The notes under the pieces: generated by a model
The model's database searches: none
The model's input: only the letters and a program-made list of their open reading frames with translations
What the model was told of the DNA's origin: nothing
Origin: Candidatus Schekmanbacteria bacterium
GTDB lineage: Bacteria; SZUA-182
Assembly (NCBI GenBank): GCA_016235675.1
Contig: JACRJN010000131.1
Span: 1,779-65,778 of the forward strand
Length of the DNA stretch: 64,000 bases
Direction of reading: 5' to 3'
In this document: in pieces, positions 57,289 through 59,774 of the stretch
How the letters are laid out: each line of letters begins with the position of its first letter
Position numbering within the stretch: position 1 is the stretch's first letter
Position numbers and translations under genes: made by a program

Positions 57289-58773
57289 GTGTTAAAAAAG
57301 CAATTATTTTTTAGATTGTCGCTGGTTGTCGTTTTGGGATTTTATTTTATATGGCCGAATATCTTTTCCTGGGCGCAGGAAGAACCTGCTGCGATAAAAA
57401 CAGACAAACCGGAATTTGTGGAACCGGGTATGAATCCCAATGAGAACATACCCACTATCGATCAATTTGTTGTCCCGTCGGATCTGGCGCCTGCCGTAAA
57501 GGATATGGCGCCGCAAAAAAAAGAATCCGAAGCGGGTAAAAAGATAGAATCCGAAGCGCCGACATTACCCTCCGGCCTTCTCCCGGACAAAACACCGGCA
57601 GCCGCTCCTGTGGCACCGGAGATGCAGCCTACTTTAACGGACTGGAATAAAGAAAATTTACTGAAATCATATAGCGATTTTATGAAAATGATGTCTCCGA
57701 AACGGGATGGGATCAAATTGGAAGCGCAAACAACGGAAGCACAAGATAATCCGATTTGGAAATTTCATAGCTGGCTGCAAGACCAACTGGCAATTATGGA
57801 ACAAACCGGCGGAGAAACCGCCGGCGGCAAAGGCGGCCTGGAAGAACTGTGTTTTGTTTGCCATAACGGTAAATTGGTAGTCAACCCTAACTTCTCCGGC
57901 GATTATACCAGTATCAAGGATGTTTTTCAACTCACCAGCCGCCATCCGGTAAGAGCTGCCGATAAATCCAATTTCTACGATCCGCTGAATCCGGATGACC
58001 CGACCAAATCAGACCCGACCTGGGAACGCAAACTACAATGTACTACCTGCCATAATCCGGCGGTAGTTACCGGAAAAACCAAGGACGGCGGTTATCCCTT
58101 AACCCTGCCTACCGATCCCGAAGTCACCTGGACGCAAAAATTAATCGACGGCTGGCCTACTTTGGATAATCCACCCTGGCCTCATGACACCCCGCCCCGT
58201 CCGATAGTCTACGGGCGCCCCTATGCGGATGATCCCAATCCCGATGTGCCGGGGGACGAAAAATTGGGCCCCGATGCCACGGAATTACCTAATTTTACCT
58301 CCTATTGTCAAACCTGCCACCGGCAAATTTCCGGACGTTACGGCGTGAGCAATAACTATTCCCGCTTAAAATACGATCCGATCCGCTATATCAAGGGAGA
58401 TGGCGGCGGCAATGTTTCAACCCATGGTTTAGCGCGCGGCAGGGAAAGCAATACCCCACATTTAAAATTAAGAGAACCATTCTACTCTTTAAGATGCGAC
58501 GCAGAGGGAAATGTAGTTAACAATCTTTATCTGGCCTGCGTCGATTGCCATGAACCTCATGGCTCTTCCAATGCTTTTTTATTAAGAACGAAGGTAAACG
58601 GTGTAGCGGGTGTAAAAGCCGGGTATGACGGTAAATTTTTTACTTTATGTTCTAAATGTCACATTGTCGCCAATCCCTGGCCGGGCGGGTATCCGCACGG
58701 GTCTCCGGGGGATATGGCGGAAAGATCATGTATCCAGTGCCATAACCATTCATCAGGGGGGGGGCGTTTCTAA
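57289..58773 (+). CDS. secreted hexaheme c-type cytochrome
   Basis: Signal peptide followed by six CxxCH motifs (CFVCH, CTTCH, CQTCH, CVDCH, CSKCH, CIQCH). GTG start after AAGGAGG. The upstream ORF extension is REP-derived. Confidence 0.75.
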   Translation: MLKKQLFFRLSLVVVLGFYFIWPNIFSWAQEEPAAIKTDKPEFVEPGMNPNENIPTIDQFVVPSDLAPAVKDMAPQKKESEAGKKIESEAPTLPSGLLPDKTPAAAPVAPEMQPTLTDWNKENLLKSYSDFMKMMSPKRDGIKLEAQTTEAQDNPIWKFHSWLQDQLAIMEQTGGETAGGKGGLEELCFVCHNGKLVVNPNFSGDYTSIKDVFQLTSRHPVRAADKSNFYDPLNPDDPTKSDPTWERKLQCTTCHNPAVVTGKTKDGGYPLTLPTDPEVTWTQKLIDGWPTLDNPPWPHDTPPRPIVYGRPYADDPNPDVPGDEKLGPDATELPNFTSYCQTCHRQISGRYGVSNNYSRLKYDPIRYIKGDGGGNVSTHGLARGRESNTPHLKLREPFYSLRCDAEGNVVNNLYLACVDCHEPHGSSNAFLLRTKVNGVAGVKAGYDGKFFTLCSKCHIVANPWPGGYPHGSPGDMAERSCIQCHNHSSGGGRF

Positions 58774-59774
58774 TGACGAATGAACTTGTGTTCGGCAGTG
58801 GCAGTATCATAGGGAAGAGTAAACCCATCAGGCATCTGTTTGGTCTCATCCCTTATTTGGCTGCCCAGGAAAATCCTGTTTTGATTCAGGGCGAAAGCGG
58901 CACCGGCAAAGAGCTAGTGGCTACCGCCATACATTCTTACAGTCAGCGTTCTCTGTCGCCGCTGATTAAAGTCAACTGTTCCGCCATAGATGAAACCTAT
59001 TTAGATGTCGAGTTATTCGGCGGGGTAAAAGAAACAGGAGAGGGGAAAAAAGAGGTAGCGAAGGGGTTATTCGAAATCGCCGACGGCGGCACAATTCTCC
59101 TGGATTGTATCGATAAATTACCCCCGGCGGGACAGGAAAAGCTCTCCCAGGTAATGAGCGAACATAAAATTCACCCCTTAGGTGTTCCGGAGATTAAGAA
59201 TATTAATGTACGGGTCCTGGCCACCACAGAATCTTCTTTAGCGGAGGCTGTCGGCCAGGGGGCATTTAATGAAGGTTTATACAACCAACTGCAAAATAAT
59301 GTCATCAGTATGCCGGCACTGCGCAAATTCCGGGAAGATATACCCTTGCTTGTCAAGCACTTTGCCACTAAATACAGCAAAAAACATAATAAATCAGTAA
59401 AAGGCATTTCGGCTGAAGCCTTGTCTATCTTGATGGAATACGACTGGCCGGGGAATATCAAAGAATTAGAGGAATGTATCGAGCAGGCTGTGATCATTGA
59501 GGATTTGGAAATCATCCAGGCGCACAGTCTGCCCTATGATTTGTTCCATACGGCGGAAAGCGCCCGTCATCGCCTGGCGGAGGAATATAATCTGCGCCGC
59601 CGCTTGAAGGCATTCGAGCGTCAATTGATCTTGCGCGCTTTAAACGAAACCAAATGGAAGAAGAAAGAAGCCGCTCAGTTAATGGGCATCGATCAGCGCA
59701 ATTTGAGCTATTTCTTAAGAAAGCATCACATTACCGATCCGGCCACCAGGGAAAAAGAGCGCGGGTATCTATAG
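58773..59774 (+). CDS. sigma-54-interaction-domain transcriptional regulator lacking a receiver domain and the GAFTGA motif
   Basis: AAA+ bEBP core (GESGTGKE Walker A, GGTILLD Walker B, arginine finger) and a C-terminal Fis-type HTH. The GAFTGA position reads GVKETGEG. The start codon overlaps the stop of the cytochrome gene (TAATG). Confidence 0.8.
   Translation: MTNELVFGSGSIIGKSKPIRHLFGLIPYLAAQENPVLIQGESGTGKELVATAIHSYSQRSLSPLIKVNCSAIDETYLDVELFGGVKETGEGKKEVAKGLFEIADGGTILLDCIDKLPPAGQEKLSQVMSEHKIHPLGVPEIKNINVRVLATTESSLAEAVGQGAFNEGLYNQLQNNVISMPALRKFREDIPLLVKHFATKYSKKHNKSVKGISAEALSILMEYDWPGNIKELEECIEQAVIIEDLEIIQAHSLPYDLFHTAESARHRLAEEYNLRRRLKAFERQLILRALNETKWKKKEAAQLMGIDQRNLSYFLRKHHITDPATREKERGYL

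Follow-up and report, generated by a model that had tools for sequence, protein, structure and literature searches.

A contig from Candidatus Schekmanbacteria, of which a stretch of 64,000 nucleotides (nt) was analysed (hereafter the window), encodes a predicted exported hexahaem c-type cytochrome together with an atypical bacterial enhancer-binding protein (bEBP), the two genes sharing a stop/start overlap. An NCBI entry from a Candidatus Schekmanbacteria metagenome-assembled genome (MAG), labelled "sigma-54-dependent Fis family transcriptional regulator" and encoded on a 65.9-kb contig, matches the regulator at 100% identity, and the cytochrome (P0121) is 100% identical to the NCBI hypothetical protein HZA78_09680, encoded on the regulator's contig. 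In the window the regulator has the cytochrome gene, recJ and fmt as its neighbours. The anatomy of the locus, with the basis of each assignment in brackets, is as follows:

55331..57136, + strand: recJ, encoding DHH, DHHA1 and RecJ_OB domains (Pfam).
57138..57258, no strand: palindromic element resembling repetitive extragenic palindromes or miniature inverted-repeat transposable elements (REP/MITE-like), between recJ and the cytochrome gene (repeat families D1-D3).
57272..57280, + strand: Shine-Dalgarno sequence AAGGAGGGG of the cytochrome gene, 8 nt before GTG 57289 (read from the sequence).
57289..58773, + strand: hexahaem c-type cytochrome gene, from GTG 57289 to TAA 58771-58773, 494 amino acids plus stop (open reading frame, CxxCH motifs, Pfam).
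57289..57375, + strand: predicted Sec signal peptide or signal anchor of the cytochrome, residues 1-29, ending in SWA before Q (read from the sequence).
57376..57648, + strand: Pro/Glu/Ala-rich low-complexity linker of the cytochrome, residues ~30-120 (alignment A1, columns ~60-200).
57649..58770, + strand: conserved haem domain of the cytochrome, residues ~121-494 (invariant columns of alignment A1).
58756..58764, + strand: Shine-Dalgarno sequence GGGGGGGGG of the regulator, within the three terminal Gly codons of the cytochrome gene (codon comparison).
58771..58775, + strand: TAATG stop/start overlap (read from the sequence).
58773..59774, + strand: gene for the atypical (degenerate) enhancer-binding protein, 333 amino acids (Pfam).
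58890..58913, + strand: Walker A, GESGTGKE, residues 40-47, intact (alignment).
59031..59048, + strand: L1-loop position of GAFTGA, reading ETGEGK, residues 87-92 (alignment with PspF G83-A88).
59103..59108, + strand: Walker B Asp-Cys, where Asp-Glu is expected (alignment with PspF D107-E108).
59604..59723, + strand: Fis-type helix-turn-helix (HTH; HTH_8), residues 278-317, highly conserved (Pfam).
59810..59985, no strand: composite REP/MITE-like palindrome lying after the regulator gene (inverted repeats I1 and I3).

Pfam recognizes in the regulator a Sigma54_activat domain (PF00158; residues 12-176, E 2.8e-43), AAA_lid_14 (E 3e-26) and HTH_8 (E 1.5e-7), and nothing else; an additional N-terminal domain reached from an upstream start was considered and rejected, the reading frame being closed upstream of the ATG. 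The protein was aligned with E. coli PspF and the 120 best homologues, using for PspF a sequence whose numbering reproduces the published K42, F85/T86, D107/E108, R162, R168 and R227. This alignment places ETGEGK in exact register with GAFTGA (PspF G83-A88) and free of gaps. A displaced GAFTGA can likewise be discarded, as the L1 loop aligns with PspF without a gap and a six-frame scan of the window yields no match to G[AS][FY][TS]G[AS]. The first-pass annotation had described a regulator devoid of both a receiver or sensor domain and the GAFTGA motif, which it paired with the cytochrome in one transcript; with the frame closed, the L1 loop in register and the pair present in all six loci of the clade described below, that description stands. 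Its account of what was lost is correct for GAFTGA and too narrow beyond it, for the Walker B Asp-Glu of PspF (D107-E108) is replaced by Asp-Cys, the arginine fingers R162 and R168 by Asn and Gln, the sensor I residue N149 by Glu and the sensor II residue R227 by Lys. The PF00158, lid and HTH regions of a functional bEBP are all present in the window protein, while GAFTGA and the full set of ATPase residues are missing from it, and we infer that it has lost the residues needed for ATP hydrolysis and with them its ATPase activity. Scores of the regulator lie far below every NCBIfam equivalog cut-off, including those for PrdR, NifA, AtoC, ZraR, NorR, PspF, NtrX and TyrR (159 bits versus 576 for TyrR, 190 versus 600 for NtrX, 206 versus 551 for DhaR and 209 versus 443 for PspF). 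Its best relatives among PDB sequences are ZraR, NifA and NtrC1, with VpsR and NtrX also among them.

A neighbour-joining tree of the AAA+ core recovers the window regulator in a monophyletic clade (P0001-P0006), the other members of which (P0002-P0006) are five clusters of proteins of about 330 residues, 63-68% identical to it. GAFTGA is absent from all six, and the L1 loop differs each time (ETGEGK, TA-EGE, AGTDLH, VAAAER, DAGS and AGRSED). The arginine equivalent to R168 is also lost in 6/6 members; the Walker B Glu position reads C, E, E, Q, N and Q across the clade, the R162 position N, R, R, R, N and N, and the sensor I Asn is retained by three members. The clade thus offers a natural decay series, in which GAFTGA and R168 are gone everywhere and the Walker B Glu, R162 and the sensor I Asn disappear stepwise. 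Pairwise identities within the clade were compared, segment by segment, with those within its GAFTGA-bearing sister group. The L1 loop has fallen to 23% identity in the clade versus 72% in the sister group, the L2 loop to 31% versus 67%, Walker B to 73% versus 96% and sensor I to 56% versus 87%. Walker A is nearly equal in the two (85% versus 87%), and the lid (83% versus 73%) and the C-terminal HTH (62 residues; 82% versus 61%) are better conserved in the degenerate clade. Hypervariable L1 and L2 loops beside a conserved P-loop, lid and HTH point to a functional DNA-binding protein that is very probably sigma-54-independent: sigma-54 remodelling appears to have been dropped, with nucleotide and DNA binding apparently still under selection and no signature of a pseudogene.

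This directly observed pattern of decay bears on two further readings of the regulator. One is that it remains a working sigma-54 activator with an unconventional L1 loop, in line with its strong bEBP homology (the PF00158 match at E 2.8e-43) and intact Walker A. Against this, L1 is different in every clade member and L2 is hypervariable too, the Phe and Thr found essential by mutagenesis are absent (literature cited in PMC3162934), the window protein has substitutions at the Walker B Glu, both arginine fingers and both sensors, and there is no -24/-12 site nearby. The promoter pattern scanned was TGGCAC-N5-TTGCW, in the surroundings of the pair loci, where no target genes were identified. In the window, L001 and L003 the neighbourhood of the pair contains no sigma-54 consensus promoter; in L005 relaxed -24/-12 matches lie only inside genes, and L004 has as its nearest one relaxed match, which precedes a cytochrome b561 gene. 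That L004 site was rejected as a candidate, since it is not reproduced in L003, where the promoter is a good sigma-70-type one. As a positive control, the scan recovered four canonical TGGCA[CT]-N5-TTGCT sites in the sister loci. We therefore regard continued sigma-54 activation as extremely improbable. The other reading, that the regulator is a decaying relic and a functionless pseudogene in the making, would account for the many lost catalytic residues and for the lineage-specific nature of the losses. It is equally improbable in our view: full-length reading frames persist in six lineages whose proteins share no more than 63-68% identity with that of the window, the HTH, lid and Walker A have kept the high identities given above, and the conserved overlap and embedded Shine-Dalgarno sequence described below indicate that decay is limited to specific functional elements.

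The nearest intact relatives (P0007-P0019, about 50% identical) are also sensor-less and retain every motif. Their loci carry canonical TGGCA[CT]-N5-TTGCT promoters and a gene for a REC-PilZ protein, and the cytochrome is absent from them. The intact P0007 and P0008, for example, lie amid sigma-54 promoters (L006 9168 and 6349(-); L009 3214 and 6254) with the REC-PilZ gene next to them. The presence of a REC-PilZ gene after the intact sister bEBPs suggests that the ancestral bEBP may have had a regulon related to cyclic di-GMP (c-di-GMP). A second, independent decay series is nested inside the sister group, leading from P0021, P0028 and P0031 to P0022, P0026, P0029, P0034, P0041 and P0048, all short sensor-less bEBPs; SAFTGD becomes SNLTES, Walker B DE becomes DK, DM or DR, R162 becomes L or I, and the sensor II R becomes S or G. 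In the one locus of this series that was examined (L021), the cytochrome is absent. Together the clade and the second series provide a compact test case for the role of a bEBP AAA+ core after sigma-54 remodelling has ended.

The recognition helix, GIDQRNLSYFLRKHHITDP, is near-identical in the degenerate clade and in the sister bEBPs, and this raises an alternative in which the regulator acts as a dominant-negative competitor: a dead bEBP that shares enhancer sites, or forms mixed oligomers, with an intact GAFTGA-bearing paralogue and so silences sigma-54 promoters whenever recJ and the cytochrome are translated. The sister bEBPs are themselves sensor-less and stand amid canonical sigma-54 promoters; moreover, the accessions of an intact sister (P0011, MFQ5646378.1) and of a member of the cytochrome family (P0135, MFQ5645570.1) are only about 800 apart, a weak hint that both come from one MAG. 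The 64-kb window, however, shows neither an intact paralogue nor a GAFTGA motif nor a sigma-54 promoter, and none of the paired loci contains the candidate enhancer motif of the sister loci. We consider competition of this kind unlikely. Its fuller form, in which a dead sensor-less bEBP would report cytochrome translation and compete with an intact paralogue, thereby linking synthesis of a respiratory protein to the shut-off of a sigma-54 regulon, is in our estimate quite unlikely; we know of no dedicated bEBP-derived pseudo-ATPase anti-activator that has been described. Transfer of the enhancer site itself was also tried and rejected, as the palindrome-like ATGCGCAT near the sister-locus sigma-54 promoters was searched for in the paired loci without a match. 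No meaningful non-coding k-mers are shared among the paired loci. Control by c-di-GMP of the FleQ/VpsR type was considered in view of a GGDEF gene 6 kb upstream of the pair (window 50434-51297) and of the REC-PilZ genes beside the sister bEBPs; the FleQ contact residues (LFRS, R185/N186) appear not to be conserved, the window regulator reading VATAIH.

The coupling of the regulator to the cytochrome gene is seen at nucleotide level. The last base of the cytochrome TAA is the A of the regulator's ATG at 58773, and a T[AG]ATG overlap with the cytochrome gene directly upstream occurs in 6/6 clade loci (the window, L001/L002, L003, L004, L005 and L022). Since five other independent assemblies show the pair of genes, their overlap and a degenerate L1 loop, the association is not a chance pattern. 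In the six coupled loci the codons for GGGRF, the invariant C-terminus of the cytochrome family, are GGA/GGG GGG GGG CGN TTY, and these thereby place GGAGGGGGG 9 nt before the regulator's ATG (GGGGGGGGG in the window, GGAGGGGGG in the relatives). In the ten cytochrome loci that have no regulator the same Gly residues are mostly encoded by GGC or GGT; purine-ending Gly codons thus number 18/18 in the coupled loci versus 13/30 in the regulator-less ones (Fisher p = 3e-5, for loci that are phylogenetically related). This difference suggests that the Shine-Dalgarno sequence of the regulator has been built by synonymous codon choice within the cytochrome gene. On the + strand, promoter prediction gives nothing sigma-70-like from the end of recJ to the regulator. 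We propose that ribosomes ending the cytochrome would re-initiate at the overlapping ATG by means of the Shine-Dalgarno sequence within the last Gly codons, such that the output of the regulator would be tied to translation of the cytochrome message. The translational coupling proposed in the first-pass annotation is well supported by the overlap in 6/6 clade loci and by the Shine-Dalgarno sequence within the Gly codons. If it is true, recoding GGAGGGGGG to GGCGGTGGC or moving the cytochrome stop should abolish expression of the regulator, and the embedded Shine-Dalgarno sequence would be a clean case of synonymous codons recruited for translational coupling.

The cytochrome contains six CxxCH motifs (CFVCH, CTTCH, CQTCH, CVDCH, CSKCH and CIQCH) and an N-terminus that resembles a Sec signal, MLKKQLFFRLSLVVVLGFYFIWPNIFSWA followed by QEE (...FSWA before QEE, with cleavage judged by eye). 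Exactly six CxxCH motifs and a hydrophobic N-terminus are present in 19/19 aligned family members, in agreement with the secreted hexahaem cytochrome of the earlier annotation, and an AlphaFold model shows a helix at residues 2-27. Behind the signal lies a Pro/Glu/Ala-rich linker of about 90 residues, variable in both length and sequence across the family (alignment A1), and then a haem domain of about 370 residues that houses all six CxxCH motifs. Alignment A1 also reveals six further invariant histidines (H160, H219, H379, H424, H470 and H487), and this pattern of CxxCH motifs and invariant His is probably that of bis-His ligation of all six haems. Pfam matches (Paired_CXXCH_1 and Cytochrome_C7) are confined to residues 414-488, the C-terminal three-haem region. 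Together these features suggest that the cytochrome is a Sec-exported, periplasmic or membrane-tethered electron-transfer protein.

The family is very small and uncharacterised. A word-indexed search of 5.8 billion proteins returned 21 cytochrome clusters at 54-72% identity, with the next match at E 7e-8, and a profile search of 1.84 billion representatives (clusters at 50% identity) gave two at E<1e-30 followed by generic multihaem matches of at most 73 bits; a scan of metagenome contigs for further cytochrome loci added one short contig only. Distant full-length relatives of 400-450 residues have additional N-terminal CxxCH motifs (seven were counted in P0145), retain each of the six family CxxCH motifs along with four of the six extra His (alignment A2), and are labelled generically, as Paired_CXXCH and Cytochrome_C7 only. 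A C-terminal Phe is found even in distant multihaem relatives (P0145-P0266, 22-28% identical; ...LNF, ...PIF, ...RTF, ...NKF), which hints at a conserved role for the C-terminus. NCBIfam scores stay far below the cut-offs of the NrfB/NrfH, DmsE/MtrA and OmcA/MtrC families (29.5 bits versus 192 for DmsE, 14.4 versus 134 for NrfH and 11.5 versus 209 for OmcA/MtrC), to none of which the cytochrome could be assigned, and a profile search of PDB sequences with the cytochrome found no relative at E<=0.1, the sole cytochrome at E<=1 being c553 (E 0.69). An OmcS-like reading (six haems, loop-rich) was entertained and rejected as unsupported by this profile search. Both AlphaFold models of the cytochrome are poor, with a predicted local distance difference test (pLDDT) score of 39.4 from the family alignment and 46.8 from an alignment deepened with the distant relatives, and at this model quality Foldseek gave no match in the PDB.

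The constant partner of the cytochrome across the family is recJ rather than the regulator. In all loci with a visible upstream side (12/12: window 55331-58773, L001, L003, L010-L013 and L016-L020), recJ lies directly upstream of the cytochrome gene, at distances from a 4-nt overlap to a gap of about 140 nt, and the stop and start codons sometimes overlap. RecJ itself is just 38-60% identical across these loci, and the genes downstream vary: C_GCAxxG_C_C, a phosphoribosyltransferase, DUF2520, a dihydroorotase-type amidohydrolase, a colicin V production protein, a type II secretion system (T2SS) ATPase and NMO have all been found after the cytochrome. The regulator is absent from ten cytochrome loci outside the clade. 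Because the cytochrome lacks the regulator outside the clade and the downstream gene varies, the regulator is an addition specific to its lineage, joined to an older unit of recJ and cytochrome gene. The cytochrome and regulator, for which the first-pass annotation suggested a possible module, do not form a general one by this distribution, with ten regulator-less loci on the one hand and recJ in 12/12 on the other. Such strict linkage of recJ and the cytochrome in a candidate phylum draws attention to a hexahaem family that is uncharacterised. In three loci (window 53950-55320, L001 3267-4658 and L018 1944-3245) the gene immediately before recJ encodes an RnfC-like flavo-iron-sulfur protein with an unusual domain order, Complex1_51K, SLBB and Fer4_17 being followed C-terminally by the RnfC_N barrel; its recurrence there suggests a conserved block of RnfC-like gene, recJ and cytochrome gene. 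A 14-nt tandem duplication in the window (ACAATGGACAATTG x2; 55306-55337) covers both the RnfC-like stop codon and the TTG listed as the start of recJ. Genes for type II secretion or type IV pili also recur within a few kb of the cytochrome gene (window 51684-52928, L001 1145-2365, L004 4034-5251 and L018 6570-8303), encoding a T2SSF (GspF/PilC-like) protein in the window, L001 and L004 and, immediately after the cytochrome gene in L018, a T2SSE ATPase; this may be simple phylum-level synteny.

The distribution also bears on the redox-responsive module proposed in the first-pass annotation, in which the extracytoplasmic cytochrome would sense redox state or an electron acceptor and signal to the regulator. 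Strict coupling in 6/6 clade loci would fit such a module, as would genes found just downstream of the pair in related loci, namely a cytochrome b561-type gene (L003 4119-4919(-) and L004 2408-3199(-), 79% identical to each other) and a peroxiredoxin gene (L005 2648-3169(-) and, as a 79-residue fragment, L003 3665-3904). In L003-L005 these genes are opposite in strand to the pair and convergent with it, except for the L003 peroxiredoxin fragment, and as neighbours they hint at a redox theme. Neither gene is found in the window, however, and the exported cytochrome and a regulator without a membrane or sensory domain would occupy different compartments, with no transmembrane transducer encoded between them; most family members, including those of the ten loci outside the clade, moreover have no regulator at all. 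We thus consider redox signalling from cytochrome to regulator very unlikely, and the role of sensor assigned to the cytochrome in that proposal finds no support. The other role offered for it, that of a controlled or co-produced product, is possible.

In light of the above observations, we consider it probable that the regulator is a sigma-54-independent, translationally coupled atypical EBP that acts beside an exported hexahaem cytochrome in feedback or co-ordinate control. Its ancestor would have been a sensor-less sigma-54 activator of PspF architecture, which lost the L1 (GAFTGA) and L2 loops used for sigma-54 contact and kept its P-loop, lid and Fis-type HTH. Binding DNA and probably nucleotide, the regulator could function as a repressor or as a sigma-70-type activator, like published atypical EBPs, and its feedback or co-ordinate control could be linked to expression of the recJ-cytochrome transcript. 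As it has no sensor domain, how much of it is present would be the simplest control on its activity, perhaps together with nucleotide binding. Several points weigh against this proposal. P0002 and P0003 retain the Walker B DE, R162 and the sensor I Asn, and with these catalytic residues ATP hydrolysis may survive in part of the clade; motif and k-mer searches of the paired loci produced no binding site or target gene for the regulator; and the statements on ATPase activity and sigma-54 contact draw on residue identity and on published mutagenesis of other bEBPs.

The pair is flanked on both sides by REP/MITE-like repeats. Their core, AGGGCTTTAGCCCTG, has 23 matches in the window versus 0.14 expected, mostly intergenic, and copies lie at 57138-57258, at 59810-60063 and at about 20 other sites (e.g. 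16025, 16898, 27001 and 61482). The 120-nt palindrome at 57138-57258 has a folding energy of -59.9 kcal/mol (z -3.0); relatives lack it, and in them recJ and the cytochrome gene abut at this point, which suggests that it was inserted into the recJ-cytochrome gap of the window. Downstream of the regulator, nested composite REP copies at 59770-60080 reach -142.8 kcal/mol (z -8.9) and include a terminator-like site at 59965, so that this composite element is probably the hairpin at the end of the transcript. The idea that the pair is a REP-flanked mobile cassette was rejected, because the 23 core matches are spread over the window, chiefly in intergenic DNA, and the recJ-cytochrome arrangement is itself ancestral. 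Another family of hairpin repeats, CGAAGCAATCTC ... GAGATTGCTTCG inside GTCATTGCGAG...CTCGCAATGAC, is represented seven times in the window:

8100-8136
9122-9158
33223-33254
34542-34577
41007-41043
50123-50164
60214-60250

Related copies of this family are seen in intergenic regions of L001 (e.g. 4699-4710), which belongs to a different genome with proteins only about 60-67% identical. What looks like a third repeat type is formed by G/C-rich palindromes, e.g. CCCTCTCCCCCTGGGAGAGGG and GGGGGAGGG...CCCTCCCCC, filling the 420 nt that separate queH from the RnfC-like gene (53531-53949). The window also contains a gene for tmRNA at 62293-62660 (Rfam RF00023, 194.9 bits) with the tag peptide ANYYGESQLALAA.

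Among known systems, the cytochrome shares multiple CxxCH motifs and export with NrfB/NrfH, DmsE/MtrA, OmcA/MtrC and cytochrome c7/c3, and its C-terminal three-haem region fits generic models. Unlike NrfB/NrfH, DmsE/MtrA and OmcA/MtrC, its family combines six haems with a variable linker, a GGGRF end and linkage to recJ. For the regulator, the closest parallels in architecture are PspF and HrpR/HrpS, which have the same sensor-less AAA+ core and HTH. PspA or HrpV acts in trans to control PspF and HrpRS; the window regulator, in contrast, has no PspA- or HrpV-like partner gene adjacent to it, and whereas PspF and HrpRS keep GAFTGA and the full ATPase, it has lost GAFTGA and catalytic residues. 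To our knowledge, the characterised atypical EBPs all carry an N-terminal sensory domain (REC, ACT-PAS or GAF-PAS). In this respect the window regulator differs from them in having no input domain, its AAA+ region beginning at residue 12. It resembles E. coli TyrR and DhaR, Rhodobacter capsulatus HupR, Vibrio cholerae VpsR, Brucella NtrX, Pseudomonas PhhR and Myxococcus HsfA in its bEBP-type AAA+ domain, its Fis-type HTH and its defective GAFTGA. Atypical EBPs without GAFTGA (TyrR, DhaR, HupR, VpsR, NtrX, PhhR and HsfA) work with sigma-70 polymerase or as repressors, and in some of them, VpsR included, Walker B is defective as well (PMC6158489, PMC3162934); the earlier remark that GAFTGA-less relatives act at sigma-70 promoters thus agrees with the published record, which adds repression (PMC6158489, PMC3162934). 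Such proteins, of which a handful have been studied, are thought to mark an evolutionary route from sigma-54 activators to sigma-70 regulators. The window regulator is not an orthologue of any of the named atypical EBPs by NCBIfam, its decay extends to the arginine fingers and both sensors, and its gene is, unlike theirs, apparently translationally coupled to a cytochrome gene. Judged by its sequence, it appears to be an unusual member of the known class of atypical EBPs rather than a new kind of system.

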